NCBI GenBank assembly: GCA_003563895.1
Contig: PWTK01000105.1
Coordinates: 15,129 to 79,128, forward strand
Length of the DNA: 64,000 nucleotides
Source: Syntrophomonadaceae bacterium
GTDB taxonomy: Bacteria > Bacillota > Dethiobacteria > DTU022 > UBA8154
Direction of reading: 5' to 3'
The notes under the pieces were generated by a model. The model had not been told where the DNA came from. It was given only the letters and a program-made list of their open reading frames with translations, and ran no database searches. The position numbers and the translations under genes are program-made. This document shows positions 13,047 through 47,397 of this stretch, piece by piece (positions within the stretch are counted from its first letter, which is position 1; every line of letters begins with the position of its first letter).

Positions 13047-13199
13047 CAGACTATCGGGTTCGCTCAGGATGACAATGAAAGAAGCCCCGCAAAAAAGAGG
13101 TTTTAAAAGGTCACACTTACAAAAAGGCCTTGATCTGCTAAAAAGTTGTATTTTGGGGGCCACTCAACAAGAATTCCCTGAGTTAAGTTGATAATCATG
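13047..13199 (+). mobile_element. MITE-like repeat, copy A (153 bp)
   Basis: CAGACTATCGGGTTCGCTCAGGATGACAATG...GTTGATAATCATG. Flanked by a perfect 9-bp direct repeat AAAATCAAT (13038-13046 and 13200-13208). About 95 % identical to the five other copies. Confidence 0.85.
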
Positions 13200-13212
13200 A
13201 AAATCAATGCTT

Positions 13213-13255
13213 AAAACAAAACCTGTGTCCGTATACCTGACCGTACACAGGTTTT
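13213..13255 (-). terminator. Rho-independent terminator after the phasin-like gene (also usable on the plus strand)
   Basis: AAACCTGTGT-loop-ACACAGGTTTT with U-tracts on both sides. Confidence 0.55.
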
Positions 13256-13264
13256 CATTTGTGC

Positions 13265-13588
13265 CTACTGCTCGCTTTCCTCTTTGCTTTTTTCTTCTTG
13301 AGGCTGCTGGATTTTTTGTTCGAGGATTTCTACCCGCTGCTGTAAATCGTTAAATTCGCTGCGGGTGACCAGTTTTTCACGCTGCAGCGCTTCGTTAATT
13401 TTTTGGCTCAGGTGTTCTTTGAAAAAGGCTTTTTCCCTTTCGCCTCTTTCGGACAGGGTTTTTAGGAGTTTATTCACTTCATCCCTCCTAAGCTCTCCCC
13501 TTCGGTAAAGGTGTTCCAGGGTTTTTTCCGCCGTTTCCCGGGTTAGAGAAGCGGCCCCCCATCCGAGGGAAACCAGTTGGTCAAACAT
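13265..13588 (-). CDS. phasin-like / polyhydroxyalkanoate-regulator-like coiled-coil protein
   Basis: 107 aa, charged alpha-helical sequence (COG3937-like). Confidence 0.5.
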   Translation of the reverse strand: MFDQLVSLGWGAASLTRETAEKTLEHLYRRGELRRDEVNKLLKTLSERGEREKAFFKEHLSQKINEALQREKLVTRSEFNDLQQRVEILEQKIQQPQEEKSKEESEQ

Positions 13589-13656
13589 AAAATCACCTCG
13601 CCATTTGTATGAGTATCTTTTGGCCCTGCTGACATGCCTCCCCGTCTTTTACGCTT

Positions 13657-14157
13657 TCAATCAAACTTAAAATCCCCGTGTTTTTGAAAATGCTTTATCA
13701 GCCCGCCGTCAGCAAGAATGCGGATCATAGAGGGAGGCAGGGGTTTAACCGGTATTTCAAGACCGCGCCCCCGGTTGAAAACGAGCCCTTCGGCCAGATC
13801 CACTTCCAGTTCATCTCCCTCTTCAATCTGAGAAGTGTCGCATTCTACCACAGGAAGCCCCGTGTTGATGGCGTTGCGGTAAAAAATGCGCGCGAAGGAA
13901 GTAGCGATCACACAGCTGATGCCGGCATGTTTTATGGCCAGCGGTGCCTGTTCCCTGGAAGAACCGCATCCAAAGTTGGTGCCGGCCACAATCATATCCC
14001 CTTCACTGATTTTATTGTAAAAATCGGGGTCGAGATCTTCCATCACGTGGCGGGCCAGTTCATTCATGTCCAGGGTTTTAAACTTGTATTTGCCGGAAAT
14101 GATATAATCGGTGTTTACATCATTGCCAAACTTAAAGCTTTTTCCGCTTAGCAGCAT
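13657..14157 (-). CDS. leuD: 3-isopropylmalate/(homo)aconitate dehydratase small subunit, short archaeal-type
   Basis: 166 aa, LeuD/HACN small-subunit fold (GCGSSREQAP). Confidence 0.85.
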   Translation of the reverse strand: MLLSGKSFKFGNDVNTDYIISGKYKFKTLDMNELARHVMEDLDPDFYNKISEGDMIVAGTNFGCGSSREQAPLAIKHAGISCVIATSFARIFYRNAINTGLPVVECDTSQIEEGDELEVDLAEGLVFNRGRGLEIPVKPLPPSMIRILADGGLIKHFQKHGDFKFD

Positions 14158-14171
14158 CGGAACGGCCTCCT

Positions 14172-15431: not shown

Positions 15432-15509
15432 GGCTGATTATTCCCCTTTCCCTTTTCGGCAAGTCCGCAAATTTGTGCTTTTAAGCCTCCTGCTTTTTAA
15501 TCCCCGCCC

Positions 15510-16700: not shown

Positions 16701-16918
16701 CATGGCAATCCCCTGTAAAAGGGGCACCTCCCTTCCAAAACCATCGAAAATGTTGTTATCGACCAATACGGATGAGCACTAATGGGTAGAAGATGACACA
16801 ACCGCCTCCCCGAGCCAGGGCCCTCGGTTGATTCAAGCCCCTGCCAGGAAACCGTTCCAGGGTTAAACGTGCCTTTCATAAAGCCTCAACAGGGACGGCT
16901 TTCTTTTGTGAGGCCGCC

Positions 16919-19321: not shown

Positions 19322-19384
19322 CGCATCCTACCCTCCACTATTTTTAAAAAAGCCCGCAAAAACCAGGTCTCTTTATTCTAGAAT

Positions 19385-19535
19385 ATGATTATCAACTTAA
19401 CTCAGGGAATTCTTGTTGGGCGGCCCCCAAAATACAGCTTTTTAGCAGATCAAGGCCTTTTTGTAAGCGTGACCTTTTAAAACCTCTTTTTTGCAGGGCT
19501 TCTTTCATTGTCATCCTGAGCAAACCCGATAGTCT
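19385..19535 (-). mobile_element. MITE-like repeat, copy B (151 bp, inverted)
   Basis: Reverse complement of copy A. Flanked by a perfect 10-bp direct repeat ATTCTAGAAT (19375-19384 and 19536-19545). It lies between proB and proC. Confidence 0.85.
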
Positions 19536-19721
19536 GATTCTAGAATGGTAAAGTGCCGGGCCTATAGTCATTTCATGTTTGAAGAACCCCAACCCGTCCA
19601 TAGCCAGTGCCATAAAATAAGGATCTCAAAATAACCCCTTCGAAACATGGTAAACATCGGTGCTCACACGACCGCTTTAAAAAGTTTTGCCAAATTTGCA
19701 TAGAGCTTGAGACTAAAGGGT

Positions 19722-20573
19722 CTAACCACCCAACTCCCTGCCCCTCTGGGCTGCATTTTTAACAGCCTTGATCAGGGCGGCCCTGATGCCGCCTTCTTCC
19801 ATGGCCAGCAGCCCGGCGCTGGTGGTGCCGCCGGGAGAGGTTACCCGGTTTTTTAGCTCAGCGGGATGTTCTTCGCCCTCCAGGTACATGCGGGCGGCCC
19901 CCAGGACGGTTTGGGCGGCCAAAAGCATGGATTCCTGCCGGCTCAAACCGGCCTCAACCCCGCCGTCTGCGAGCGCTTCTATCATCAACAGCACATAGGC
20001 CGGCCCGCTGCCGCTCAAACCGGTAACGGCATCCATATGTTTTTCGTCCAACGTGATGGACCTTCCCACGGCTTCCATTAACCTCTTGATTTCCTGTTCT
20101 TCTTCGTCAGAAACGTCTTCCCCGCTGCTGATCACGCTCATCCCTTCCCCCACCAGGCAGGGAGTATTCGGCATCACCCTTGCAATCTTGAGCGGCCTGC
20201 CCAGCTGCTCCAGAAAAAAAGAAATCCGGATGCCGGCGGCAACAGAAACCAGGACATGGGTGGGCGACAGGCAGGGCTTCAGATCCTCCAGCAGCCCCCC
20301 CACATCCTGGGGTTTGACGGCGATAAATATGATGCGGGCATTTTCACAAAGTTTCTCCAGTGAAGCTGAGGGCACTGCGCCGATTCTTTGGGAGAGCTCT
20401 TCGACTTTGCTTTTTTCCTTGTCAAAAATTAAAACTTGTTCCGCTGTAAAAAGCTTTTTGTTGATAAGCCCTTCAACAATGGCCGTTCCCATCGTACCGC
20501 AGCCGATAAAACCGAGCAAGCCCCCAACCTCCCTTTGTAATGCATTCTGTTTTGTATAAAAATTATACCTCAA
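19722..20573 (-). CDS. proC: pyrroline-5-carboxylate reductase
   Basis: NADP-binding GFIGCGTMG motif. The true start is probably a TTG/GTG downstream of the annotated first Met. Confidence 0.85.
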   Translation of the reverse strand: MRYNFYTKQNALQREVGGLLGFIGCGTMGTAIVEGLINKKLFTAEQVLIFDKEKSKVEELSQRIGAVPSASLEKLCENARIIFIAVKPQDVGGLLEDLKPCLSPTHVLVSVAAGIRISFFLEQLGRPLKIARVMPNTPCLVGEGMSVISSGEDVSDEEEQEIKRLMEAVGRSITLDEKHMDAVTGLSGSGPAYVLLMIEALADGGVEAGLSRQESMLLAAQTVLGAARMYLEGEEHPAELKNRVTSPGGTTSAGLLAMEEGGIRAALIKAVKNAAQRGRELGG

Positions 20574-22226: not shown

Positions 22227-23519
22227 TCAGCCGCTGTTATCATAACAGGCAGCAAACACTTCCAGGAAAGCCCTTTGCATGTCTTCTTTGTGTCCCAGGC
22301 AGTGGCAACCGCCGCACTGTGTTTTCAGGGCATGAATCAGCCCGGGGTGCTTGGCATAAATCAGTCGAAAGGCCTCGCCAACAGCGTTATCGGCAACCAT
22401 ATCGTTTTGAGCCAGCAAAAGCAGCGAATGATATACCCGCCTGGTCCTGCCGTATTCATCTCCTTGGCGCGGTGAATTGATCCCTTTGATAATGGAGGAA
22501 AGGGATTCTTTAAAAACATTTCCCACGGGATACGCGTGGTTCCCGCACGTGTAGACGATCCCCTCGTGATCCACAAAGAGGTCGCCGTGATATTTCCCGT
22601 GATCATAGGCGTCTTTCCTGCTCATAAAATGGGGGCACTTTAAATCGAACAGGCCCATCCCCGCTTTGTTTTCCAGCTTTTCGTCACCAATTATTGCTGC
22701 ATCTCCAATACGGGAGACGCCCAGCCGCCGCAAGAACAGCTTTCCCTTCTCGTTCCCATAAACCCCCGCATTTGGCGGCACTTTTTTTTCAAATCGCAAT
22801 CCGACCCGTCCCATCACATCCTCAAGAATTCGATTCGTCGGGTCGTCCCACAACCCGCTTGATGTGGCTGTTACCCTCAATTGATAACCGATGGCGTCCA
22901 ACTCATGCCTTTTTCCAAGGCCTTCTTCCAGGCATGTGCCGATGGCTTTCGAGACAACTGCGGCCGGTACGGAATTGGCAACATTTTCATTTGGGCTTTT
23001 TAGGGTGGTGTGGTTGCTGTCGACGCTGAAATATATCCGCACGAGGCCCGCTTCCTTTAAAGAGCGCACAATTTCCCCGGCTGTGCTGTCGAACAGGCCG
23101 GCCCGTTCAAGTATTTCCCGGTTCAACGCTTTGTATTCCCCGTGAGCCCCCATAAGCCCCCCGTTGGTCAGCACGGTAGGGATCAAACCCTTGGAGCATG
23201 AGTATTCGATAAGTTCTAACAAGCTTTTATACTCAATGAATGGTTCCCCCCCTGTCCAGTATGTCCCCACCATTCCCAGGGCAGAGGCTTCGTCTACCAG
23301 CGCCCTCATTTTATCGATGGTGAGCAGGCGCTGCCGGGGTTTTCGGGATCTGGTGGTTTGATTGAGACAAAACTGGCAGTCATTATTGCAGTCGTGGGTC
23401 AGGGAGATTTTAAGCTGTGCTGTTGGTCGAAAAATGTCACCCAATTTGCTTGCACTCCAGTCGTTTTCCTTTTCGAAGTTTACATAAGCGTGAGAATAAC
23501 TCAGGCCCTTAAGTCTCAA
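22227..23519 (-). CDS. radical SAM protein with a C-terminal SPASM/twitch-like Cys-rich extension
   Basis: 430 aa. CNNDCQFC (CX3CX2C) near the N-terminus. Additional Cys clusters CPHFMS...CGNHAYP and CGGCHCLGH. The start codon is a TTG. Confidence 0.8.
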   Translation of the reverse strand: MRLKGLSYSHAYVNFEKENDWSASKLGDIFRPTAQLKISLTHDCNNDCQFCLNQTTRSRKPRQRLLTIDKMRALVDEASALGMVGTYWTGGEPFIEYKSLLELIEYSCSKGLIPTVLTNGGLMGAHGEYKALNREILERAGLFDSTAGEIVRSLKEAGLVRIYFSVDSNHTTLKSPNENVANSVPAAVVSKAIGTCLEEGLGKRHELDAIGYQLRVTATSSGLWDDPTNRILEDVMGRVGLRFEKKVPPNAGVYGNEKGKLFLRRLGVSRIGDAAIIGDEKLENKAGMGLFDLKCPHFMSRKDAYDHGKYHGDLFVDHEGIVYTCGNHAYPVGNVFKESLSSIIKGINSPRQGDEYGRTRRVYHSLLLLAQNDMVADNAVGEAFRLIYAKHPGLIHALKTQCGGCHCLGHKEDMQRAFLEVFAACYDNSG

Positions 23520-23570
23520 GTTCTTCGCAAATTTGGCAAAACCATTTCAAGCGATCGTGTGAACACCGAT

Positions 23571-23639
23571 GTTTACTTTGTTTAGAAGAGGTCATTTTGA
23601 GAACCGTATTTTATGGCACTGGCTATGTCCAGGTTGGGA
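23571..23639 (-). promoter_or_regulatory. conserved ~70-bp upstream element, copy 1 (shared with 33396-33464)
   Basis: About 85 % identical to a block upstream of asp23. It contains CATAAAATA preceded 17 nt upstream by AACC, which resembles a sporulation sigma-K-type promoter. It lies 50-120 nt upstream of the radical SAM start. Confidence 0.4.
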
Positions 23640-23991
23640 TTGCAAATATGATTTCACCCCGGTTGGTTTTCTCCTCCCCTTTGACCCCCCACCCCCTTTG
23701 CGCCACAGGGCCCGGATGGTTGTTGAAACGGCTGATCGTTGTGCAGGCCGAGAGGTATGACCAAAACGCTTTCCGTTTAGAATATTATTTCGTTAATCCA
23801 GGAGTTTTTCCTGCTCCAACATGATTCTAAAGAACTATTTCAGGCGGTTCTTTCTGCCGCCCGTTCTTCTCCTTATATATGTATTTAAAAATATTTTTCC
23901 GGCAAAAATATCTTTGCAGGAATTCGCTTGTATATAGAGAACTACTTTTTAATTAATAAAATTTATCCTATAAATAGAGAAGGTGAGTCAG

Positions 23992-25794
23992 ATGACCGTT
24001 AGTTATGTAAATGGAGAGCGAATCTATTACGCTTTTTTGGCCGGGTCCAGGCAGGTCGCCCGCTATAAAGACTTGTTGAACCGTATCAATGTTTTTCCTG
24101 TTTTCGACAGCGACACGGGCAATAATCTGTCTGCCACTTTGAACTACATGGTGGACAGCGTCAGGCCTTCTCCGTGCGCGGGCGAAACTGTCCGTTCACT
24201 GGCTGACGCTTCCTTGAACGGAGCCCGGGGCAACTCGGGCATCATTCTGGCCCAGTTCATTAACGGTCTGTCCCGGGAAATTGGCGATCAAAAGCGTCTC
24301 ACCACCCGCGCTTTCGGGGATTCCATGGTGCGTGCCGTGCCCTACGCGTACGGTGCTCTTTCCAGGCCGGTGGAAGGGACCATGCTGACGGTTCTCAGGG
24401 AGTGGGCAGAAGCGGTGAACAACTGGGGGAAAGAAACGAATGACTTCGGAGAAGTCCTCCTGAATTCCCTGGAACGGGCCCGGGTTTCCCTGAAAGATAC
24501 CCGGGAAAAGCTGAAGGTGCTGAAAGATGCAGCTGTGGTCGATGCCGGCGCCCAGGGTTTCGTTCTTTTCCTGGAAGGGGTCGCCGAATTATTCAAAACC
24601 GGGGATATTAAGTCCCTTATGCGGGAAAAAACCCCACCGCTGGCCCTGCAGGAGGAACCCCTGCTGGAGGGAATGCGTGGAGACATGGACTATCGTTTCT
24701 GTTCTGAAGCGCTTCTTACGGGAAAGAACATGGATCACCAGCTGGTCCGAAATACTGTTGAGCCGCTCGGTGACTCCTTTATTATCGCCGGAACCCCGGA
24801 AAAAGCCAAAATTCATATCCACACCAACCAGCCGGAGAAATTCTTTTTCAAATTGATCAGCTTCGGGTCTGTCATCAACCAGAAAGTCGACGATATGTTG
24901 AAACAGTACCAGGTCGTCCATGAACGCAGGCACGATATCGCCCTGGTGACGGATTCCATTGCCGATCTTCCCCAGGAAGTGATCGACAACCACCAGATCC
25001 ACGTGATCCCTGTTAACCTGGTAATCGAGGGGTCCAATTTTCTGGACAAAATCTCCGTCAAGCCCGACCAGATTTACTCCATCCTCGACCAGGTTAAAGA
25101 ATATCCCACCTCCTCCCAGCCTTCCTTAAATGCGGTGCAGCGGCAGCTGTCATTTTTGTGCAGCCACTACCAATCCGTCATCATGATCTCCGTTTCCAGG
25201 GAGTTGAGCGGCACCTGGAATGTATTTAAAAGCGCAGCCGAAACGCTGCAGGAGAAGGGGAAAAAGATTTCGGTCATCAACTCCAAGCTGAACTCGGGAG
25301 CCCAGGGTTTGCTGGTGATGGAGGCGGCGGAGCTGATTGCAGCCGGAAGGGAACACGATGAAATTGTGCGGATCATCGAGCAAATAATACCGACAATCAG
25401 GATCTTCGTCAGCGTAGCCACTTTTAAGTACATGGTGCGGGGAGGGCGGGTCAGCCCGATGAAGGGGTTCATCGCCAACCTGTTAAACGTAAAGCCCATA
25501 GTCTCCCTGGATGAAGAGGGGCGCGGCCTCGCTTTTGATAAAGCCTTAACCCAGCGGACCAACACGAATAAGATCCGGAACATTGTTAAGTCCATCCAGG
25601 ATGAGCGCTCCGTGAACAAATACTGTATCGTGCATGCAGGAGCCCCCGAGAAAGCTTTTTCTTACCAGCGGCTCTTTGCCCGGCTGCTGGGGAAGCAGCC
25701 GGAATACGTGGTGGAAATCTCCCCCATTGTGGCCTTAAGCGCCGGCCTGGGAGCGGTAGCCGTCTGCTTGATGGAAGATGCAGAAGCGGTATAA
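23992..25794 (+). CDS. DAK2/DhaL-domain plus DegV-domain fusion (FakA/YloV-like fatty-acid kinase subunit)
   Basis: N-terminal DhaL-like motif DSDTGNNL. The C-terminal half is DegV-like (IALVTDSIADLP). RBS GAAGGTGAG precedes the ATG at 23992; the track ORF begins at a GTG at 23983. Confidence 0.75.
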   Translation: MTVSYVNGERIYYAFLAGSRQVARYKDLLNRINVFPVFDSDTGNNLSATLNYMVDSVRPSPCAGETVRSLADASLNGARGNSGIILAQFINGLSREIGDQKRLTTRAFGDSMVRAVPYAYGALSRPVEGTMLTVLREWAEAVNNWGKETNDFGEVLLNSLERARVSLKDTREKLKVLKDAAVVDAGAQGFVLFLEGVAELFKTGDIKSLMREKTPPLALQEEPLLEGMRGDMDYRFCSEALLTGKNMDHQLVRNTVEPLGDSFIIAGTPEKAKIHIHTNQPEKFFFKLISFGSVINQKVDDMLKQYQVVHERRHDIALVTDSIADLPQEVIDNHQIHVIPVNLVIEGSNFLDKISVKPDQIYSILDQVKEYPTSSQPSLNAVQRQLSFLCSHYQSVIMISVSRELSGTWNVFKSAAETLQEKGKKISVINSKLNSGAQGLLVMEAAELIAAGREHDEIVRIIEQIIPTIRIFVSVATFKYMVRGGRVSPMKGFIANLLNVKPIVSLDEEGRGLAFDKALTQRTNTNKIRNIVKSIQDERSVNKYCIVHAGAPEKAFSYQRLFARLLGKQPEYVVEISPIVALSAGLGAVAVCLMEDAEAV

Positions 25795-25915
25795 ACTGCA
25801 CGGCGCAAACATTCCCCGGCATTCAGAAATATTCGGACCCTTTCGGACGTGATGGGACAAAGCTCCTGCACGGCAATGCAACATCTTCCAACGGAAACTT
25901 ACAATAATCATATAA

Positions 25916-26067
25916 CATGATTATCAACTTAACTCAGGGAATTCTTGTTGAGTGGCCCCCCAAATACAGCTTTTTAGCAGATCAAGGCCTTTTTGTAAGT
26001 GTGACTGTTTAAAACCTCTTTTTTGCGGGGCTCTTTCATTGTCATCCTGAGCAAACCCGATAGTCTG
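25916..26067 (-). mobile_element. MITE-like repeat, copy C (152 bp, inverted)
   Basis: Flanks ATCATATAA and ATAATATAA match at 8 of 9 positions. Confidence 0.85.
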
Positions 26068-26166
26068 ATAATATAATATGGCGTCTCCATTAACCCGGAA
26101 ACGCGGCATGTTCTTACCCCGAGAGAATATCTTGCAACGAGGCTCAATCAGGATGGGGGTAGTTGT

Positions 26167-26964
26167 GTGGTCGAACTTTTTTTGCAGGCAGCAGCAGTCG
26201 TTTTCATTTATTTCCTGGCCTTTTTCCTGGTAGCCCAGGTTATTCGAAACAATTCCATCGTGGACATGGGTTGGGGTGCCGGATTTGTCGTTGTGACAAT
26301 GGCAACCCTTTTCAGTCAGGGTGCCTTCGCCGAGAGAAATCTGGTCCTGGCTCTCCTGGTAACCATATGGGGCGGAAGGCTCACCTACCACATTGTCCGG
26401 CGGAACTGGGGCAAACCGGAAGATTTTCGCTACGCCAAATGGCGGGAAGAATGGGGCCGCTGGCTTGTGCCCCGGGCCTTTTTCCAGGTTTTCATGCTGC
26501 AAGGCGCGTTGATGCTGATCATCGCGTACCCCATTATCCTCATCAACGCTTTCCCGCAGCCGGGCCTACGCTACCTGGACTTTCTGGGGGTTTTGGTCTG
26601 GGTCATCGGCTTTTATTTTGAAGCCGTTGGGGACAAACAGTTGGCCCAATTCAAACAGGATCCGGCCAACAAGGGACATGTCATCAAAACAGGGCTCTGG
26701 AAATACACGCGCCATCCCAATTATTTCGGCGAGGCCACCATGTGGTGGGGCATATTTTTGCTGGCGCTCTCTGTGCCCACGGGATGGAGCGCTGTCATCA
26801 GCCCGCTGACCATTACGGGCATGCTGCTTTTTGTGTCAGGGGTGCCCATGCTGGAGAAAAAATACCAGGACAATGCCGAGTTCCAGGCCTATGCCCGCGT
26901 CACCAGCAAATTTTTCCCCTGGTTTCCCCGGAAGTCCTCTGGCCAGGAGGGAGGGAGCGATTGA
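26167..26964 (+). CDS. DUF1295-family membrane protein (steroid-5-alpha-reductase / ICMT-like fold)
   Basis: 265 aa, polytopic. Motif [15 protein letters not shown] is typical of DUF1295 and methyltransferase-like membrane enzymes. Confidence 0.7.
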
Positions 26965-27818: not shown

Positions 27819-29465
27819 ATGAAAACCTCCACTACACACCAGGCAAAAAAGGCCTCTACGGCCATCAGTCGCTGCGGCATGATCTCTACGGCCTCAGCTG
27901 CTGCCACCGAGGCCGGCGTAAAAATGCTGAAGCTGGGAGGCAACGCTGTTGACGCTGCCGCAGCGGCTGCATTTTGCCTCGGAGTGACCGAACCCCAGGC
28001 ATCAGGGCTTGGGGGGCAAAGCATGATCCTGCTTTACCGCCAGGGAGCAGATCCGGAGGCCCTTACCCTGGACGGTTCATCGCGTGCCCCCTACGGCATT
28101 GATCCGCAGTATACGCCGGCCCAAAAGATAAAAGTGGGGATCCAGGCCACCACCGTTCCCTCCACACCGGCAGCGCTTGGCTATTTGTTGGAAACTTACG
28201 GCACCTTTCCTCTCGACCGCGTCCTGGAGCCAGCTATTGAAGCAGCGGAGAAAGGTTACAAAATTACGGCGCTCCAGCATCGGCTGCTGGCCCGCGAAGC
28301 CTCAAAGCTCCTGCAAGATGAACAGGTAAAGTCCGTTTTTTTCAAAAACGGCCAACCCCTGAACGCCAGGGAAACCGCTGTCCAGCCTCAACTTGCAGAC
28401 TGCCTGAAGCGCATCTCCAGGGAGGGGTGGCGGGATTTCTACGTGGGGGTGATTGCAAGAGAAATCATCAAGGATATGGAATGCCGGGGGGGCTTGATTT
28501 CCCAGGCCGACCTCAACCAGATCCCCTATCCCGTTCAGAGGGACGTTTTAAAGGGCTGCTACCGCGGCAGGGATGTTTACACCTTCCCACCGCCGGGAGC
28601 GGGGTGGGCGCTTGTCCATATCCTTAAGACCCTGGAGGCGTTCGAGCCATGGGAAGTGGTGCCGCCGTCACCCTTGGCGCCGTTAATTCTGGCAATGGTC
28701 TTCAGGGCCGCCCTGATGTGCCGGGAAAGGATGCCTGTAGACCCGGCGCTTTTTCCACAGGTTTCTCACGAATTGAAACTGGACAGGGCCAGCACCGAGC
28801 AGATCGCTGCCCGCATTCGTGCCGTTCTTTCCTACCGCGATAAAGAAAATTTTTCACCTCCCGGGGCAAGCGGGGAAACAACCCACCTTTCTGCAGCCGA
28901 TGCTTTCGGAAACACCGTAGCGATCACCCAGTCCATCGAGCTGTTGTTCGGCGCCAAGACCATGGCCCGAGGCCTGGGATTCTTTTACAATAATTATATG
29001 AGCGCCTTTCAGTACAAGGACATGATGCACCCCTTCTTTTTACTGCCCGGTGGGCGTCCGTGGAGCAGCGCAGCCCCCACCCTGCTCTTCCAGGACGGCC
29101 GGCCCTTCCTGGCCCTCGGCAGCCCGGGGAGCGAACGCATTTCAACATCACTGGCCCAGGTCATTACGCGGGTCGTGGATGCCGGGCAGGATCTGTGGGC
29201 AGCCATAGAGGCGCCGCGACTGCATGCGGGCAGTTCCGGGAAAGTGCTCATCGAAAAACGTTTTTCCCCGGAGGTAATGGATACCCTGCAGAGAGCAGGT
29301 TTCACGGTTACCACACGGGGAGCTTACAGTTATTTCCTGGGCTGCGTTCAGGCCGTGATGCTGCCGGAGCCCGGAAGAGACTTTTTTTACGGCGTCTCCG
29401 ATCCCCGACGGGACGGTGCTGCGGGAGGCCCCCAATACCTGGAGGAGGTTGAAAAGCAGAATTGA
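27819..29465 (+). CDS. ggt: gamma-glutamyltranspeptidase-family protein (no signal peptide, so predicted cytoplasmic)
   Basis: 548 aa. Autoprocessing/nucleophile region GETTHLSAADAFGNTVAITQSIE. Preceded by an extended -10 TGCTATAAT and an RBS AGGGATGG. Confidence 0.85.
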   Translation: MKTSTTHQAKKASTAISRCGMISTASAAATEAGVKMLKLGGNAVDAAAAAAFCLGVTEPQASGLGGQSMILLYRQGADPEALTLDGSSRAPYGIDPQYTPAQKIKVGIQATTVPSTPAALGYLLETYGTFPLDRVLEPAIEAAEKGYKITALQHRLLAREASKLLQDEQVKSVFFKNGQPLNARETAVQPQLADCLKRISREGWRDFYVGVIAREIIKDMECRGGLISQADLNQIPYPVQRDVLKGCYRGRDVYTFPPPGAGWALVHILKTLEAFEPWEVVPPSPLAPLILAMVFRAALMCRERMPVDPALFPQVSHELKLDRASTEQIAARIRAVLSYRDKENFSPPGASGETTHLSAADAFGNTVAITQSIELLFGAKTMARGLGFFYNNYMSAFQYKDMMHPFFLLPGGRPWSSAAPTLLFQDGRPFLALGSPGSERISTSLAQVITRVVDAGQDLWAAIEAPRLHAGSSGKVLIEKRFSPEVMDTLQRAGFTVTTRGAYSYFLGCVQAVMLPEPGRDFFYGVSDPRRDGAAGGPQYLEEVEKQN

Positions 29466-31633
29466 AAATTGCCATTATTTATAACCGGGACAGCCAAGCG
29501 GTTATCAATCTATTTGGCATGCCGAACCGTGAAAAGTACGGCTTACAGACCATTAAACGCATAAAGGAGGCCCTTGAAGCACATGGCCACCAGGTGCAGG
29601 CTTTCGAAGGCGATAAGAATATCATTTATGCCCTGGAAGATTTCATGCCTTCGGTCATCTCGGGAGAGCGGCCGGGCCTGGTTTTCAACCTGAGCTACGG
29701 CATACAAGGGCGGGCCCGCTACACCCATATCCCGGGAATCCTGGAAATGCTGGGCATCCCTTACGTGGGCTCCAGCCCTGAAACCCATGCCATCGCCCTG
29801 GATAAGGTGCTCACCAAAATTGTACTGACCCAGAAAAACCTTCCTACCCCGAAATTTACCGTGCTGGAAAGCCCCGATTTTGAGTTCCCCCTGCAGGAAG
29901 AAATGACCTTCCCCTTCATCGTTAAGCCACGGGATGAAGCCGTCTCATTGGGGATCAAAATCGTTCATGATGAAGCGGGGCTGCGGGAATGGGTCAGGGC
30001 TATTTACGAGATGTTTCAAGCCCCGGCCCTGGTGGAAGAGTACATCGAGGGTCGAGAGATCAACGTGGGACTCCTGGGCAACAGTCCCGTGGAAGCCCTG
30101 CCGCCGGTGGAAATGATTTTTTACAGGGGGCCGCGCATTTATACGCATGAAGACAAGGTGAAAAAAAGCAGGCGCCGCATAGACAAGGTGTGCCCCGCCT
30201 CCCTTGATCCCGCCCAGGAAGAGCTCTTAAAAACCCTGTCCATCCAGGCCTTTAACGCGCTGGGCTGCTTTGACAGCGCCCGCGTGGACTTTCGCCTGGA
30301 CAGAGAAGGCAATCCCTATATTCTGGAAGTGAACTCCATGGCCAGCCTCGGTCCGGACGCCTCGTACGTTTTTGCCGCCGAAAAGATGGGGTTGGACTAT
30401 GCAGCCCTGGTGAACCGCCTCATTGAAATCACCAGCCAGCGGTACTTCGGCCCAATTATTGCGGATGACGGCCTGGACGATTTATACAAGGGCAGGGGAA
30501 AGGCCGTTTTTACCCATCTCATACAGAGGCGTGACCAGATGGAAGAGGAACTGAAAGGGTGGACCAACCTCCCCAGCTGGACCGAAGACGCGGCAGGGCT
30601 GGGAGCAGTGATCAAGCGGCTTGAAGCGAAAATGCATGATTTGGGGTTGCATTCCATAAAAGAGCTCACGAACCAGCGTTTTGCCTGGGCCTGGCAGACC
30701 GCGCCCGGGCTCGAAGACGGCACGCTCCTGGTGGCTTCTGTCGATGTTCCGCGCAGCGATACCAGCGGTTATCCCACCCCATTTCGAAAGGCGCCGGAGC
30801 AGATTTTTGGTGAAGGCATAGCCTCCAGCCGCGCCGGGCTGCTCTGTTTGCTCGAAACCTTACAGGCTTTAAAAACAGCAGGGTGCCTGCACCACATCCC
30901 TTTGGGCGTGTTTATCTATGCCGACGAAGGTCGGGGGATGCGTTACAGCAGCCCGACCTTCTCCCAGGCCGCTGAAAAAGCGGGCCAGGTTCTTGTGATG
31001 CAGTCGGGCCTTCACGGCGGGAAAGTGGTGGATCAGAGAAGGGGGTCGAGAAAATTCAGCATTCTTGTGGAAGGGGCTTTTCAGCGTATTGGCTACCACC
31101 GAGGGCCGGGAGATCTTATGAACTGGTTTTTGCAGCGAGCCGCGCGGGTGGGCAAACTCAGCATGCCGAAAAAGCGGTTGACGGTGGCCGTGCAAGAAGT
31201 GCATTCAGAACGTTACAGCGTGCTGCTCCCCCACCGCATTCGCGCCACGGTTTACGTAACCTTCCTGGATCCTGCATTGGCCGGTGATGCCGAAACCGAA
31301 ATACGAAAAATATTTACTCCGACGGAAAAAGAAGAATTTTTATGTTACGTGGAAAAGCTGGAAGAACGCCCCGCCCTGACCCGCTCGGAAAGCGCTGCCT
31401 CTCTTATCTCCAAGCTCAAGGCCATCAGTGCAGATTGGAAACTGCCTTTCGGCGTTGATTCCAGCCTGCTGCCTTCGGCAGCGGGGGTCGTGCCCGAGGG
31501 GATACCCGTATTATGTGGTCTCGCCCCGTCCAGCCAGAACATGTACACCCCCTTTGAATCGATCCAGCGCGGAGAACTTTTGCAGAGGGCTCTGCTGCTG
31601 ACATTGTTTTTAATGGAGGGACAGGTGGAATGA
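29462..31633 (+). CDS. fusion protein: D-Ala-D-Ala-ligase-like ATP-grasp (N-terminal) plus M20-peptidase-like domain with substituted metal ligands (C-terminal)
   Basis: Residues 1-330 have Ddl/ATP-grasp architecture (IVKPRDEAVSLGI...EEYIEGREINVG...ILEVNSMASLG). Residues 400-723 align to M20 motifs, but the His of the HxD motif is Ser (LLVASVDVP) and the Asp/Lys of GxxDxK are Ser/Arg (GIASSRAG). Its start overlaps the ggt stop by 4 nt. Confidence 0.7.
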   Translation: MKIAIIYNRDSQAVINLFGMPNREKYGLQTIKRIKEALEAHGHQVQAFEGDKNIIYALEDFMPSVISGERPGLVFNLSYGIQGRARYTHIPGILEMLGIPYVGSSPETHAIALDKVLTKIVLTQKNLPTPKFTVLESPDFEFPLQEEMTFPFIVKPRDEAVSLGIKIVHDEAGLREWVRAIYEMFQAPALVEEYIEGREINVGLLGNSPVEALPPVEMIFYRGPRIYTHEDKVKKSRRRIDKVCPASLDPAQEELLKTLSIQAFNALGCFDSARVDFRLDREGNPYILEVNSMASLGPDASYVFAAEKMGLDYAALVNRLIEITSQRYFGPIIADDGLDDLYKGRGKAVFTHLIQRRDQMEEELKGWTNLPSWTEDAAGLGAVIKRLEAKMHDLGLHSIKELTNQRFAWAWQTAPGLEDGTLLVASVDVPRSDTSGYPTPFRKAPEQIFGEGIASSRAGLLCLLETLQALKTAGCLHHIPLGVFIYADEGRGMRYSSPTFSQAAEKAGQVLVMQSGLHGGKVVDQRRGSRKFSILVEGAFQRIGYHRGPGDLMNWFLQRAARVGKLSMPKKRLTVAVQEVHSERYSVLLPHRIRATVYVTFLDPALAGDAETEIRKIFTPTEKEEFLCYVEKLEERPALTRSESAASLISKLKAISADWKLPFGVDSSLLPSAAGVVPEGIPVLCGLAPSSQNMYTPFESIQRGELLQRALLLTLFLMEGQVE

Positions 31634-32454
31634 TACCCGGCACACCGCTTCCGGTGGTGCTGTCCATGCCTCACGGCGGAACAAAAGTGCCGCCGGAACT
31701 AAAGCACAGGTGCCGGCTGGGCCTGGCGGCCATTCTTCGCGATGGGGATACCTGGGCACGGCATCTGTTTGACTTTGAGGAAATCACAGCAGAAGGCTGC
31801 GTGGATACAGAGGTGGCGCGGGCCGTGGTTGACATGAACCGCTCTCCTGAAGATCTGCCCCCGGCAAATCCCGACGGCGTGGTCAAAATATCAACGGTGC
31901 TTGGAGAGCCCGTCTGGCAGAGCCTTGGTGGACTGACGGGGGACGAGGTGCGCCTGCTGCTGGAAAAGTATCACCGGCCTTATCACCGGCAAATTGCCAG
32001 GATGTGTGAAAAAAGGGCGGCCATCCGATTGGGCCTGGACTGCCACACCATGCTGGCACAAGCGCCCCCTGAAAAAGGGGAAGAACACCTTCGCCGACCT
32101 TTAATCTGTCTCAGCAACCTGGGAGACGATTCCGGAGAACCTGACGGACTGCCCGTCTCAGCTCCACCAGCGCTCCTGCGGGCCCTGCAGCATGCACTGG
32201 AAAGGGTATTTGAAAGCGATCCCCGTTTTGCCGGGGCTCATCCGGACGTCGTTTTAAACCGGCCTTTCCGGGGCGGGTTTATCGTAAAAAATCACAGTGC
32301 TGCAGGGGAAGTGCCCTGGATACAGGTGGAATTTAACCGCTCTCTATACCTGCCGGCGCCGTTTCCCATCGCCAAAGAGCCCGACCCCGACACAGCCGGG
32401 AAGTTGCGATCGCTTGGAAAAGGGCTTTTGCTGGCTGTCAGGGAAGTGCTCTAA
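31630..32454 (+). CDS. N-formylglutamate amidohydrolase (FGase, PF05013-like) family protein
   Basis: 274 aa. The N-terminal VVLSMPHGGTKVPPEL matches the FGase family signature. Its start overlaps the upstream stop. Confidence 0.65.
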   Translation: MIPGTPLPVVLSMPHGGTKVPPELKHRCRLGLAAILRDGDTWARHLFDFEEITAEGCVDTEVARAVVDMNRSPEDLPPANPDGVVKISTVLGEPVWQSLGGLTGDEVRLLLEKYHRPYHRQIARMCEKRAAIRLGLDCHTMLAQAPPEKGEEHLRRPLICLSNLGDDSGEPDGLPVSAPPALLRALQHALERVFESDPRFAGAHPDVVLNRPFRGGFIVKNHSAAGEVPWIQVEFNRSLYLPAPFPIAKEPDPDTAGKLRSLGKGLLLAVREVL

Positions 32455-32563: not shown

Positions 32564-32579
32564 TGCCGGAAAGAAAAAT

Positions 32580-32729
32580 CAGACTATCGGGTTTGCTCAG
32601 GATGACAATGAAGAAGCTCCGCAAAAAAGAGGTTTTAAAAGGTCACACTCACAAAAAGGCCTTGATCTGCTAAAAAGCTATTTTAGGGGCCACTCAACAA
32701 GAATTCCCTGAGTTAAGTTGATAATCATG
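32580..32729 (+). mobile_element. MITE-like repeat, copy D (150 bp, most diverged)
   Basis: Flanks AAGAAAAAT and AAGAAAAAA match at 8 of 9 positions. It is inserted exactly between two convergent terminators. Confidence 0.85.
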
Positions 32730-32730
32730 A

Positions 32731-32767
32731 AGAAAAAAAGCCTCCCGGAAGTTTTGCCAGGAGGCTT
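32731..32767 (-). terminator. Rho-independent terminator after asp23
   Basis: Minus-strand sense AAGCCTCC-loop-GGAGGCTT followed by TTTTTTTCT. Confidence 0.65.
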
Positions 32768-32791: not shown

Positions 32792-33178
32792 TTATCCCTG
32801 TTTTTCTTCACTGCCCGAAACCGTAGCAAAGCTGACACCCTGTACGTGGACATTAACGTGGGTAACCCTTAAACCCGTCATTTTCTGCACCGCTTTATTT
32901 ACATTTTCCTGAACATTCCATGTTACGTCGGGTATGCGGTAGCCATAGTTCACGATCAGGTATAGATCAATGGCTGCTTCTTCCTCGCCAATCTTCACCC
33001 TGACACCCTTGGAAATGTTTTTGCGGCCCAGCGCCTCGGCAATTCCCCCTGCAATCCCTCCGCTCAGGCTGTTCACGCCTTCCACCTCTGCCGCGGCAAG
33101 GCCGGCAATCATGGAAACCACTTCGTCAGTAATGCGAACTGAACCATGCTCAGAAGGAATCGTTCCCTCCCCAGTCAT
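32792..33178 (-). CDS. Asp23/Gls24-family envelope stress protein
   Basis: 128 aa; the N-terminus IPSEHGSVRITDEVVSMIAGLAAAEVEGV is typical of Asp23. Confidence 0.85.
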   Translation of the reverse strand: MTGEGTIPSEHGSVRITDEVVSMIAGLAAAEVEGVNSLSGGIAGGIAEALGRKNISKGVRVKIGEEEAAIDLYLIVNYGYRIPDVTWNVQENVNKAVQKMTGLRVTHVNVHVQGVSFATVSGSEEKQG

Positions 33179-33395
33179 AATAAGCCCCCCTTCTTGAAAT
33201 CGGGTGAAGCGTGCACTAATTATAACAAAAAGCCATATCTACTTCAAACCTTTTTTCCTTTCCGCCTGCGGCCGGCCCCCTCCGTTCCTGCGATTTTTCT
33301 CATGACACCCTCTTGCGTATTGGGTGCGATGGAGCTTGGTGCTGCTGAACATAATTATTGTTCCAAACGTGGCAGCCAGAATTTATTGAACTGTT

Positions 33396-33464
33396 GTTTA
33401 CTACGTTTAGAAAGGTTCTTTTTGAGACCCGTATTTTACGGCACCGGCCATGTCCAGGTTGGGA
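33396..33464 (-). promoter_or_regulatory. conserved ~70-bp upstream element, copy 2
   Basis: GTTTACTACGTTTAGAAAGGTTCTTTTTGAGACCCGTATTTTACGGCACCGGCCATGTCCAGGTTGGGA. It lies about 220 nt upstream of asp23 and contains the palindrome CCGTAAAATACGG. Confidence 0.4.
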
Positions 33465-41601: not shown

Positions 41602-41901
41602 TTAATCCCCTCCACGCTGGAATCAGGTTAAGTAAAGGGGGCATGGCTCCAGGTTGCCGGAAATGGAAAAGGCACCACCGGGGTTATCATTCAAGCAGGA
41701 GAAAGCTCAATAGAACAGGATCCAGGGATGTAGGGAAGACCTGGGCTGGACCTTATTCCTGAAAGCGGTTTTCGGAACAGGGTCAGGGCCGCGCCGGCTA
41801 AATTTTCCTCTCCTGCTCCCCTTGCTTTTGTTGAAGTCCTGCCTGAGAAACTTAAAGAAGCCTTAATATAAGAACGTTTTCCTCCCGGGAGTGGCACGCT
41901 T

Positions 41902-42669
41902 TCAATGCGTGAACTTTTCTATGCTGTCAAAATAGAGTTTCTGATCCACAAACATGATGTCGTTGTGGCTGGCATACGGGAGAACAACGAGCTCTTTTTG
42001 GTCGGTTCCCAATCGTTTTAAGAGTACTTCGGCCTCCTCAAAGGGAACAAGCCGGTCCCGTTCGCCATGGATCAAGAGTGCGGGAATAATAACCGATGCC
42101 GCCTTTCGCTGGGACTCATTTTCCACTTCATCCAGCCCGGCCCCCCTCAAGGGGAGACCCAGGTGATTGATGAGGCGGATGGGAGAAGAAAAACCGCTTT
42201 CCACGATCAACCCCATCAGCTCCTGGGAATAGGACGAAGCTAGCTCCAGCGCGGGCATTGAGCCCATTGAGCGGCCCATAACCCAAAGCTCAGCTTGGTC
42301 CGACCTGTTCCGCACCTCCTCTTGCACGGCGTGAAATACGCGGTGTGCGTCTTCGACCAGGGACGAAAAAGTCGGGACTCCCTCACTTTTCCCGTAACCG
42401 CGGTAGTCCGCGACGACCAAATTCAGCCCTTTTTCCAGGTAAAAAGGAGCGATCTCGTCATAATCCCCCGCCACCTCCCCATTCCCGTGAAAGTAAAGGA
42501 TCCACTTCTTGCTCTTTGCATGAAGATAGACGCGGCAGGCAACCCGTACATTTTCTTCAACCTCGACCATCATGTCAAAGGCCCCTTCCGGGGGCGGGCT
42601 GAGGTCCCGGCGGGGATAAAACAAAAAGCCCAAAAGCGAGGGTTGGTCCAGCGCTGAAAAAATTGACAC
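41902..42669 (-). CDS. alpha/beta hydrolase
   Basis: 255 aa with a GRSMGS nucleophile elbow. Confidence 0.75.
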   Translation of the reverse strand: MSIFSALDQPSLLGFLFYPRRDLSPPPEGAFDMMVEVEENVRVACRVYLHAKSKKWILYFHGNGEVAGDYDEIAPFYLEKGLNLVVADYRGYGKSEGVPTFSSLVEDAHRVFHAVQEEVRNRSDQAELWVMGRSMGSMPALELASSYSQELMGLIVESGFSSPIRLINHLGLPLRGAGLDEVENESQRKAASVIIPALLIHGERDRLVPFEEAEVLLKRLGTDQKELVVLPYASHNDIMFVDQKLYFDSIEKFTH

Positions 42670-42710
42670 AAAACACCCTCCCCTGCAATAAATATGTTAT
42701 TTTCGAAAAT

Positions 42711-42863
42711 CAGACTATCGGGTTTGCTCAGGATGACAATGAAAGAAGCCCCGCAAAAAAGAGGTTTTAAAAGGTCACACTTACAAAAAGGCCTTGATCT
42801 GCTAAAAAGCTGTATTTGGGGAGCCACTCCACAAGAATTCCCTGAGTTAAGTTGAAAGTCATG
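42711..42863 (+). mobile_element. MITE-like repeat, copy E (153 bp)
   Basis: Flanks TTCGAAAAT and CTCGAAAAA match at 7 of 9 positions. Confidence 0.85.
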
Positions 42864-42999
42864 CTCGAAAAAACAGCGCCATAGCAAAAGATTCAATTCC
42901 CATGGCCTTGGGACATTCCTGCTCAGCGCACCCTATCCGTGGGGCACTTGCCCCGGCACACCCCTTTGAGCTTCGGCAGTCGAGCGGCAGCCGCTTCAT

Positions 43000-43659
43000 T
43001 TACCCCTCCCACCTCTTCTGCGCGCACTCATTCAATATTTGAAGGGCAGAGCTCGTGCCGATGCGATCTGCGCCTGCTTTAATCAGCTGCTGCGCAAACT
43101 CCGCGGTGCGGATGCCCCCGGAGGCTTTGATGCCCGCTTCCGGTGGAAGCAGCGAGCGCAGCAGCAGAATGTCTTCCAGGGATGCTCCCCGGGGACCAAA
43201 GCCCGTAGATGTTTTCACGTATTTTGCCCCGCCTTCTGCCAGCAGGCGGCAGGCCACAGCGATGTCTTCTTCGTTCAGCAGCCCGGTTTCAATTATTCCC
43301 TTTAGCGGGATGCCGCAGCGGACCACCCCCTTTATCTCTTCCCGGAGCACTTCTTCCTCGCGGTTCTTAAGGGCGGCGATGTTCAGAACCATATCCAGCT
43401 CGTTCGCCCCCTCCTCCACGGCCCTTTTCGCTTCAACCTCCTTCACCTCGGCAAAGGAGCAGCCGAACGGGAATCCCACCACGGTGACCACGTATACCCC
43501 TGTTCCTTTCAAAATATCCCTGGCCAGGGAGACATAATAAGGGTGGATGCACACCCCTTTCAAGCGGTTTTCTCCGGCTTCTTCGCAAAGCTGCCGGATT
43601 TCCTCCTTTGAAGCCGCAGGGTGCAGGAGCGTGGATTCAAGGTACTGCTCCAGTTTCAT
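43000..43659 (-). CDS. deoC: deoxyribose-phosphate aldolase
   Basis: 219 aa, class I aldolase DeoC. Confidence 0.85.
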   Translation of the reverse strand: MKLEQYLESTLLHPAASKEEIRQLCEEAGENRLKGVCIHPYYVSLARDILKGTGVYVVTVVGFPFGCSFAEVKEVEAKRAVEEGANELDMVLNIAALKNREEEVLREEIKGVVRCGIPLKGIIETGLLNEEDIAVACRLLAEGGAKYVKTSTGFGPRGASLEDILLLRSLLPPEAGIKASGGIRTAEFAQQLIKAGADRIGTSSALQILNECAQKRWEG

Positions 43660-43680
43660 GGTAACGGCAAACCTCCCCCC

Positions 43681-45102
43681 TTACCCTTCTCCCTTGATAA
43701 CCGCCAGGGGGAAAAGGCGGGCCACTTTTCTGCTGATGTCGATTTCATGCAGCGTTTCCACAACATTATCGATATCCTTGTATGCCAGCGGCGCTTCGTC
43801 CAACAGTTTGCGCTCCTTGGCCCCGTGGAAGAGGATGCCTTTCATTTGTTTTTTCAGCATGCCGGCGTCAAACTGCTTCCTGGCGGCGCGGCGCGAAAGA
43901 ACCCTTCCTGCCCCATGGTTGAGGGAATAAAAAGATTTTTCTGCCTGGGAACCGCCAGTAACCACATAGGAAGAGGTGCCCATGCTGCCGGGAATAATGA
44001 CGGGATGACCGGTTTCCCTGTAAGGGGGCGGGTTTTTTTCGTGCCCCGGCGGGAGCGCCCTGGTTGCCCCTTTTCTGTGTACCAGCAGGTCCTTTCCTTC
44101 AATGCGCTCAAATTTGGCGATGTTGTGGGAAACGTCGTAAACAATTCCCAGGCCCAACTCCTGATCGTCTCGACCAAACTTTTCGGCAAAGGCTTTCCGG
44201 ACATCGTAAGTGATCAGCTGCCGGTTTGAATAAGAAAAGTTCATCGCCGCCAGCATGGCCCCCAGGTAATCCCGGCCTTCGGGCGAGTCAATGGGAACCG
44301 CGGCCAATCCCTTCGAAGGGAGCTCTATCCCGTATCGGGCGGCGGCTTTTTCCATGATCTGCGAGTAATCGGTACAGATCTGGTGGCCAAAGCCTCTGCT
44401 TCCGGTATGGATGAGCAGCGTCAGCATCCCTTCGACAAGTCCAAAGGTCGAAGCAGCTTCCCTGTCGAAGATTTCCGCCACCTCGCCCAGCTCGATAAAG
44501 TGATTTCCGCCTCCGATGGTGGAAAGCTGGTTCCCCCTTTCCCGGCCTTCCTTGCTGACCTTGCCCAGATCGGCCCCGGCAAACGACCCTCCTTCCTCCA
44601 CGTAAAGGGAATCCTCGGAGCGGGCAAAGCCCATTTCAACGAGCGCTTTCATCCCCGTTTCAATTATTTCCTTGAACTGCTTTTTGGTAAAGTGATGGTA
44701 GCGGCTGCTTTTACCGACCCCAGTGGGGACGCGGGAAGTGATCCCCCTCATCAGTTCCCTGAAATCTTCACCGGAGAGCTTGGCTGCCTCGATCTCGGTG
44801 CGCAGAAGACGTACGCCGCAGTTGATATCCATGCCGACCGCTCCCGCGGATATCAGGCCTTTTGAGGCATCCATGGCCATTACGCCTCCTATGGGGAGGC
44901 CAAACCCGGCATGGATATCGGGCATCCCTACCACGTAGCGGTAAACACCAGGCAGCGAAGCGGCGTCGACCAGCTGTTTCAAAGATTCCTCTTCCACAAA
45001 AGAGCGGTAGAGGAAATCGTTGAGGTAGACCAGGGCATCGACCTTCATCCGACCGCTGCGCGGAATCATATAGCAATTTTTCCCGTAAGGCACCAGTTTC
45101 AT
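43681..45102 (-). CDS. rtcB: RNA-splicing ligase RtcB
   Basis: The start was trimmed to MKLVPYGKN. Conserved RtcB metal-site histidines are present. Confidence 0.9.
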   Translation of the reverse strand: MKLVPYGKNCYMIPRSGRMKVDALVYLNDFLYRSFVEEESLKQLVDAASLPGVYRYVVGMPDIHAGFGLPIGGVMAMDASKGLISAGAVGMDINCGVRLLRTEIEAAKLSGEDFRELMRGITSRVPTGVGKSSRYHHFTKKQFKEIIETGMKALVEMGFARSEDSLYVEEGGSFAGADLGKVSKEGRERGNQLSTIGGGNHFIELGEVAEIFDREAASTFGLVEGMLTLLIHTGSRGFGHQICTDYSQIMEKAAARYGIELPSKGLAAVPIDSPEGRDYLGAMLAAMNFSYSNRQLITYDVRKAFAEKFGRDDQELGLGIVYDVSHNIAKFERIEGKDLLVHRKGATRALPPGHEKNPPPYRETGHPVIIPGSMGTSSYVVTGGSQAEKSFYSLNHGAGRVLSRRAARKQFDAGMLKKQMKGILFHGAKERKLLDEAPLAYKDIDNVVETLHEIDISRKVARLFPLAVIKGEG

Positions 45103-45597
45103 GTTCCTGCACCCTTCCCGTGAATGCTCCAACGACAGTGGGGCGGGCAAAAGTCTCACATCAGCCCCCGCGAAACCTGGTGGCGGTCGGTTTTCCCGAG
45201 CATTCGAAGCCCCGCGGACAGGCCAAAGTGCAGTTCCAGCTTCCGACCCGAAAGATATTTTCACGATTCTAATACGCATAATTTCATGAATGGTCTATTC
45301 GATTATTTCGTTAAAGCCTTCGCCAAACCCTTCTGCTTTGAGACAAATAATTCTGACATTTGACCGGGAGTTGGCCCACCCCGCCACTTACCCCTACAGC
45401 TGGCGTGAGGATCCACTGCAGGCCGCCGGGGTCCAACCTGTAAAAAGGTCGCCTTTCCAAACCGACAGCAAACTTACAGCAGCAGCACGGTCCATTCCGC
45501 TACAGGCGGCAGAGATAAAAGGAGGATTTTCTGAAATCATTGTTGAAAGAATTAAATTAAAAGGTTCTCCGGGTTTTTGCTGAACGAATTAAATTAT

Positions 45598-45750
45598 CAG
45601 ACTATCGGGTTTGCTCAGGATGACAATGAAAGAAGCCCCGCAAAAAAGAGGTTTTTAAAGGTCACACTTACAAAAAGGCCTTGATCTGCTAAAAAGCTGT
45701 ATTTTGGGGGCCACTCAACAAGAATTCCCTGAGTTTAGTTGATAATCATG
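45598..45750 (+). mobile_element. MITE-like repeat, copy F (153 bp)
   Basis: Flanks TTAAATTAT and TTAAAATAA match at 7 of 9 positions. It sits in the divergent rtcB / mtaD promoter region. Confidence 0.85.
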
Positions 45751-47392: not shown

Positions 47393-47397
47393 AGCAC

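Follow-up and report, generated by a model that had tools for sequence, protein, structure and literature searches.

Miniature inverted-repeat transposable elements (MITEs) are non-autonomous DNA transposons, classically represented in bacteria by the Correia elements of Neisseria, RUP of Streptococcus pneumoniae, bcr1 of the Bacillus cereus group and Nezha of cyanobacteria. Such elements are ∼100-200 bp long, end in inverted repeats, duplicate their targets and occur in many intergenic copies, including copies within operons and at assembly breaks. The duplicated target is TA for Correia and RUP, and TTTAT for bcr1. The insertion sequence (IS) IS231 has its own non-autonomous derivatives, the MIC231 elements of the B. 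cereus group, which carry passenger genes (PMC2266710, citing De Palmenaer et al. 2004, Chen et al. 1999). Here, we describe a 153-bp element present in six copies in a 64,000-nucleotide stretch of contig PWTK01000105.1 from a Syntrophomonadaceae bacterium (class Dethiobacteria); this whole stretch is called the window below. The element very probably represents a family of MITEs. An earlier reading of the DNA (the original prediction) had proposed this, and the features behind it hold: the element is small, lacks conserved coding sequence, has inverted repeats and fixed-length target duplications, and lies in both orientations in AT-rich intergenic targets.

The six copies, recovered by repeat finding, alignment and blastn, are dispersed over both strands and measure 150-153 bp (Table 1). 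Their full-length pairwise identity is 92.8-97.4% by blastn, in agreement with the ∼93-98% first reported. Five of the six positions were also as first given; the copy in the proC-proB spacer (c2) proved one base longer at each end (19384-19536, earlier 19385-19535). The consensus has 153 bp at 41% G+C (CAGACTATCGGGTTTGCTCAGG...CCTGAGTTAAGTTGATAATCATG), and the alignment of copies has sharp edges, with CAGAC... as the conserved start and ...TCATG as the conserved end. The ends that bound the element read CAGRCTATC... and ...GATAATCATG, with symmetric 5'-CA...TG-3' tips. The left-end 20-mer GACTATCGGGTTTGCTCAGG matches the window six times at no more than one mismatch, with 0 matches expected by chance. 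The terminal inverted repeat, rightly predicted to be imperfect, is real but weak: 14 of 22 positions are complementary, the right arm is 1 nt longer, and 74 of 100,000 shuffles gave an equally good repeat (p ∼7e-4).

Table 1. The six copies of the element in the window, their neighbouring genes and the direct repeats that flank them
Copy	Position	Strand	Element	Setting	Duplication positions	Duplication sequence	Match
c1	13047-13199	+	153 bp	Between phasin-like gene (13265-13588, -) and ubiB (11356-13017, -); antisense within co-directional pair	13038-13046 and 13200-13208	AAAATCAAT	9/9
c2	19384-19536	-	153 bp; last base A, not G	proC-proB spacer; operon's own orientation	19537-19545 and 19375-19383	TTCTAGAAT (element orientation)	9/9
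c3	25916-26067	-	152 bp; 1-nt deletion	Between DAK2/DegV fusion gene (23983-25794, +) and DUF1295 gene (26167-26964, +)	26068-26076 and 25907-25915	TTATATTAT / TTATATGAT	8/9
c4	32580-32729	+	150 bp; 1-nt and 2-nt deletions	Between convergent FGase-family gene (31630-32454, +) and Asp23 gene (32792-33178, -)	32571-32579 and 32730-32738	AAGAAAAAT / AAGAAAAAA	8/9
c5	42711-42863	+	153 bp	Between alpha/beta-hydrolase gene (41902-42669, -) and deoC (43000-43659, -)	42702-42710 and 42864-42872	TTCGAAAAT / CTCGAAAAA	7/9
c6	45598-45750	+	153 bp	Between rtcB (43681-45279, -) and amidohydrolase gene (45858-47159, +)	45589-45597 and 45751-45759	TTAAATTAT / TTAAAATAA	7/9

The strongest mark of transposition is the direct repeat that flanks each copy. 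Summed over the six window copies, the 9-bp flanks agree at 48 of 54 positions. Shuffling each right 9-mer (100,000 trials) gave a mean agreement of 25.4 and a maximum of 39; pairing the left flank of one copy with the right flank of another gave a mean of 24.8 and a maximum of 36; random window positions gave a mean of 13.4 and a maximum of 27. The match rises above chance in the 9-bp register only and stays at chance level for 7, 8, 10, 11 and 12 bp. All flanking 9-mers quoted in the original prediction were correct, and the 9-bp duplications that it proposed are borne out by these controls. It had also reasoned that further copies without duplications would speak against mobility; the two additional copies described below as L085 and L121b both have repeats that match at 9 of 9 positions. 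One detail weighs against a length of exactly 9 bp: across the six window copies, L085 and L121b, position 9 of the left repeat is T in 8 of 8 cases and position 9 of the right repeat is T in just 5 of 8. The duplication could therefore be 8 bp long and followed by a conserved element-initial T, which would put both arms of the inverted repeat in register, as the right arm is one base longer. A length of 9 bp is favoured by the symmetric 5'-CA...TG-3' tips and by the four copies whose repeats match perfectly (9/9).

The organism was traced to four metagenomic data sets via exact-protein look-ups, including a sample with contigs named SL_1KL_011_SED; it is present in the read sets SRR13089370, SRR490155, SRR16248217 and JGI 3300000362, and two look-ups with proteins encoded beside the copies gave no contig. 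Four extra copies were found at other loci on the soda-lake metagenome contigs L004, L085 and L121. None of the flanks of these copies matches the window, and the family occupies at least 10 independent insertion loci. L085 holds a full copy with a perfect duplication (TAAATAAAT). Two copies share the single 2.1-kb contig L121. The second of them, L121b (1518-1671), again has a perfect duplication (TTGATTTTT); the first, L121a (301-452), belongs to a diverged subfamily with 88% identity to the consensus and a duplication that is partly slipped in an A-tract. Both ends of L121a are changed (left CAGGCTATCAAAGAT; right, as reverse complement, CATGACGGGCAAC), and its right arm holds a GGG block that the main family has in the left arm. 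The copy on L004 is partial, 98.6% identical and located at the contig end, and was found with the exact terminal 22-mer of the element, which matched one metagenome contig. It abuts DNA of 32% G+C (positions 144-1112 of L004, Ga0207421_10154749) in which two coding regions were made out by eye, one for a protein bearing an HNH-type motif and one for a small protein. This flank may be an AT-rich island in the genome of this organism; alternatively, the element may reside in a second host.

Elsewhere, the exact terminal 22-mer had 0 matches in 185,000 species-representative genomes, a set that does not include the source genome. Viral contigs likewise gave 0 matches to this 22-mer and 0 to an internal 25-mer, and blastn against plasmid and phage collections found no match to the element. 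With no match in Rfam either, the family appears to be undescribed. A degenerate inverted-repeat pattern, TTATCAASTTAAMTCAGG, did match viral contigs 25 times, always inside phage coding sequences, and these matches were set aside as chance or unrelated.

In short-read assemblies of four samples, contigs of this organism break within c1, c2, c3, c4 and c5. At c1, the Logan contigs L089, L091 and L092 stop within the element, and a JGI contig (L090) spans the site and shows it occupied. Contig L120 begins inside c2 and L001 inside c3; L001 and L002 both stop inside c4. Contigs L086-L088, from three samples, all stop 208 bp past deoC, inside c5. Assemblers break at multi-copy repeats, so these positions fit the multi-copy status of the element.

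Intergenic repeats of this size could also be genes for structured non-coding RNAs, or cis-regulatory RNAs, conserved for their function. The copies are indeed all intergenic, some of them in 5' leaders or within operons, the ends can form a long terminal stem by pairing, and shuffles of the + strand fold slightly less well than the strand itself (z = -1.71). Nevertheless, the single-sequence z-scores of -1.7 and -0.5 are unexceptional, and the alignment of seven copies argues against a conserved fold: RNAalifold found compensatory change in 0 of 45 predicted pairs, with substitutions that break pairs and a covariation term of +0.61. No Rfam family matches the element at gathering score or E<=1; the only Rfam matches were tRNAs, at gathering score in the window, and one tRNA at E<=1 in 12900-46000. 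The copies are randomly oriented with respect to their neighbours, and an RNA would leave the 9-bp flank duplications unexplained. A functional RNA might also be expected at syntenic positions in distant genomes, a point raised in the original prediction. To this end, 80 related genomes were compared over the stretch around proB, reaching the c1 and c2 sites where contigs allowed, and neither the element nor similar paired ends were present in these loci. With no Rfam match, no covariation and no copy in these 80 loci, an RNA function is highly improbable.

A second alternative is that the repeat is a small-protein gene cassette whose payload is a 40-aa open reading frame (ORF), MTMKEAPQKRGFKRSHLQKGLDLLKSCILGATQQEFPELS. 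This ORF covers most of the element, is preceded by AGGA as a plausible Shine-Dalgarno sequence and is intact in c1, c2, c5 and L085. However, it is frameshifted in c3, c4 and L121a and ends at a premature stop in c6, and the substitutions between copies have no obvious bias to synonymous sites. The ORF has no Pfam match, and its homologues in protein collections of 5.8 billion and 1.84 billion entries are only other copies of the element. We regard a protein payload as very unlikely. Word-indexed, profile and exhaustive phmmer searches also yielded only two other copies of the element, plus two chance hits to repeat proteins, when the ORF was considered as a relic of the N- or C-terminus of a parent transposase, and that idea was dropped.

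Finally, the copies might lack independent mobility and derive from an intergenic module by segmental duplication or recombination, or be relics of REP/RAYT-type palindromes. Similarity does extend beyond the element between some flanks, over 203 nt for c2 and c6 and over 212 nt for c4 and c6. This extended similarity, however, comes from low-complexity sequence that adjoins the insertion sites, namely terminator hairpins and T-tracts; the flanking genes are otherwise unrelated, and every copy has a distinct 9-bp duplication of its own. REP elements are palindromes of 20-40 bp without target duplications. An immobile origin of this kind is extremely improbable. Since the RNA and small-protein tests came out null, transposition is the sole remaining model for the duplications.

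A MITE family of this type would work as follows. A DDE transposase encoded elsewhere in the genome would bind both ends of the element and excise or copy it. The 3'-OH ends would then be joined, with a stagger of 9 bp (possibly 8), to phosphates of an AT-rich target that often lies beside terminator T-tracts, and gap repair would yield the duplication. One master copy may have burst by transposition, after which the copies would have decayed independently. Per copy, there are 2-6 differences from the consensus (1.3-3.9%), nearly all of them private, and this star-like pattern suggests one past burst from one master copy. The original prediction had spoken of recent activity, which holds only in part and was put too strongly: besides this divergence from the consensus, duplications have decayed by 1-2 mismatches in four of the six window copies, a diverged subfamily exists on L121, and the same sites are occupied in all four samples.

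Several points weigh against the MITE reading. The terminal inverted repeat is just ∼64% complementary; an autonomous IS with matching ends was absent from the window, the 80 related loci, the viral contigs and the plasmid and phage collections; and the species itself yielded no empty site, as contigs from the four samples are all occupied or broken in the element. With neither an autonomous IS nor an empty site at hand, mobility is a reading of structure rather than an observed event. We infer that the element is mobilised by a full-length IS elsewhere in the genome. The window itself was scanned for such an enzyme: 51 of its 55 ORFs of at least 90 aa were compared with Pfam and NCBIfam, and none of the 51 matched a transposase or integrase family, consistent with the original statement that no transposase is encoded there.

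The right end of the element, together with a duplication of about one helical turn, offers a lead to the enzyme, not a classification. Judged from sequence, the mobilising transposase may be an IS231-like member of the IS4 family, an assignment we put forward tentatively. The IS231 subgroup is nearly confined to Firmicutes and has the end consensus CAT-------AA--TAA--- (PMC2266710, Table 1). The reverse complement of the right end, CATGATTATCAACTTAACTC, agrees with this consensus at 8 of 8 conserved positions, and the right end CATGATTATCAACTTAAC carries the ATCAACTTAA core of the IS231F inverted repeat. That repeat, CATGCCCATCAACTTAAGAA/GGA, was checked on two IS231F copies in pBtoxis, where IS231F is 1655 bp long and flanked by an 11-bp duplication (GCCTCACCATA). 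The right end matches CATGCCCATCAACTTAAGAA at 14 of 20 positions, a score that 9 of 200,000 random 20-mers equalled (p ∼5e-5 per comparison). IS4-family duplications measure 10-12 bp in the IS231 subgroup, 9 bp in IS10 and 8-10 bp in IS4Sa (PMC2266710), and the 9 bp seen here fall within the range of the family.

Other observations weigh against an IS231-like enzyme. The left end, CAGAC..., fits the IS231 consensus at 3 of 8 positions (counted by hand) and the IS231F repeat at 6 of 20, and a 9-bp duplication lies outside the 10-12 bp of the subgroup. IS4-family transposases are DDE enzymes with a YREK motif; a tblastn search with the IS231F transposase found nothing in the window or related loci, and no IS4 transposase was found in the DNA available for the lineage. 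The targets are plain AT-rich 9-mers, whereas IS231A prefers a GGG(N)5CCC-like target. It is thus a serious possibility, just short of probable, that the MITE is moved by a transposase outside the IS4 family and that its IS231-like right end is coincidental. Candidate families with duplications of 8-10 bp include ISAs1 (with CAGGG ends), IS256, IS1 and ISLre2. Coincidence would have to account for the full consensus match of the right end and its likeness to the IS231F repeat, and also for the left end of L121a, CAGGCTATCAA, which is closer to CATGCCCATCAA. Moreover, the IS4 family is marked by 5'-CA tips and by duplications of about one helical turn.

Should the IS231-like lead hold, the element could be the footprint of an IS231-like lineage in anaerobic, haloalkaliphilic Dethiobacteria, with two dissimilar ends and a stagger of 9 bp in place of 10-12 bp. 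This fuller picture is conceivable and somewhat doubtful. The element would then count as a chimeric or asymmetric-end MITE, and the range of the IS231 subgroup would reach far outside the B. cereus group. At about one copy per 10 kb, such an element would be a major force in shaping its genome and would break up metagenome assemblies.

By gene content, the window belongs to the ordinary core chromosome; it includes mutS, mutL, fur, miaB-like, ubiB, aconitase and homocitrate-synthase-like genes, as well as proA, proB, proC, rtcB, deoC, methionine-salvage genes and sod. All six copies lie between the long ORFs of its gene map, as originally claimed. Their 30-bp flanks have 32-43% G+C compared with 52.9% for the window, and several copies adjoin terminator hairpins and T-tracts; c4, for example, adjoins the T-tract of the Asp23 terminator (32767-32738). 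Of the six, c4 has convergent neighbours and c6 divergent ones; the other four (c1-c3 and c5) sit in co-directional gene pairs (phasin-ubiB, proC-proB, DegV-DUF1295 and deoC-hydrolase), where two are sense and two antisense. The orientation of the element is independent of the direction of its neighbours. The interiors of c1-c4 contain no consensus promoter or terminator.

The best ProB matches reach 74-75% identity at most and come from metagenome-assembled genomes (MAGs) of Dethiobacteria and 'Syntrophomonadaceae', many from soda-lake sediments. The proC-proB spacer measures 400 bp here and 32-100 bp in nine close relatives (L005-L013); the spacers of these relatives lack the element and are too diverged for alignment with that of the window. 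A fuzzy search for paired ends (up to 7 mismatches, 80-3500 bp apart) over 1.18 Mb of related loci returned only the true copies on L085 and L090 and chance pairs without duplications. In an uncultured Clostridia MAG (L043, 9893-10159), ∼265 bp are enclosed by a 30-nt inverted repeat with 80% complementarity. One arm, TGGTTATCAAGTTAAATCAGG, is identical to the right end of the element at 19 of 23 positions, a single case with ∼0.03 expected by chance on a rough estimate; this stretch may be a remote MITE relative whose end is of the same type.

Two pairs of copies enclose genes in a manner reminiscent of composite transposons. Between c3 and c4 lies a cluster (27819-32454, +) that encodes a gamma-glutamyltranspeptidase, a 723-aa ATP-grasp protein (D-Ala-D-Ala-ligase-like) and an N-formylglutamate-amidohydrolase-family protein; c5 and c6 form direct copies around deoC-rtcB. 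Composite transposons were ruled out in both cases because each copy has its own duplication. The window further holds two paralogous S-adenosylhomocysteine (AdoHcy) hydrolase genes, at 47398-48846 (-; 482 aa) and 53994-55241 (-; 415 aa). The block between them has methionine-salvage-like Pfam matches (IF-2B, Aldolase_II, PNP_UDP_1) and PfkB-kinase and SurE genes.

Other repeats occur in the window. A second family of 70-150 nt, 83-86% identical, has copies at 19573-19723 (-), 23503-23651 (+) and 33395-33464 (+). The first starts directly after the proC stop codon and, together with c2, makes up most of the oversized proC-proB spacer; another is located upstream of the DAK2/DegV gene, and the third is antisense to both neighbours. 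This family has no Rfam match and an unexceptional fold (z = +0.8), and neither inverted repeats nor target duplications are obvious. A third repeat of ∼110 nt, 79-87% identical, is found at 47282-47400 and 56544-56651 (read on the - strand) and on L121 (581-693). The first of these copies lies between the amidohydrolase and AdoHcy-hydrolase genes, which converge; the second is upstream of sod (55641-56237, -) by ∼300 nt, and the L121 copy is upstream of a nikR-like gene by ∼65 nt. By eye the repeat contains a Fur/PerR-box-like sequence, AACAATGATTTTCA, and it may be a shared promoter or operator module of a metal or oxidative-stress regulon. A 167-nt tandem-like repeat with 95% identity (57161-57327 and 57371-57537) is two LysM domains and their linker inside the coding sequence at 56720-57610 (-).

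The importance of the MITE family is practical, for annotation, assembly and operon context, and not conceptual. The family is unannotated and dense, with six copies in 64 kb, and copies lie in both orientations inside co-directional pairs and likely operons (proC-proB, phasin-ubiB and deoC-hydrolase). Short-read metagenome assemblies of this soda-lake organism are visibly fragmented by the element. The family also implies a further transposase in the genome, and strains could be marked by which sites are occupied and which are empty.

Set beside the known systems, the element shares parts with several of them. With IS10/IS50-type members of the IS4 family it has in common a 9-bp duplication and an implied cut-and-paste DDE logic (PMC2266710, Table 1); its tips, however, are 5'-CA, whereas theirs are 5'-CT or CW, and they are mostly found in Proteobacteria. 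It resembles IS231 and MIC231 in the subgroup signature of its right end and in a host that belongs to Bacillota (Firmicutes), and MIC231 also in being non-autonomous and presumably moved in trans. Unlike MIC231, it is a 153-bp element without a passenger gene, as no ORF is conserved. Unlike IS231, it has a second end that is not IS231-like, inserts into plain AT-rich 9-mers and duplicates 9 bp rather than the 10-12 bp of the subgroup or the 11 bp of IS231F; its host is an anaerobic soda-lake bacterium of the class Dethiobacteria, not a member of the B. cereus group. The element differs from Correia, RUP and bcr1 in its 9-bp duplication. In size, inverted repeats, possession of target duplications, intergenic and operon copies, lack of a transposase and assembly breaks, it is like the classical MITEs (a comparison by properties, not by sequence). 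A MITE is an ordinary kind of element, and this family leaves the working of MITEs as known unchanged.

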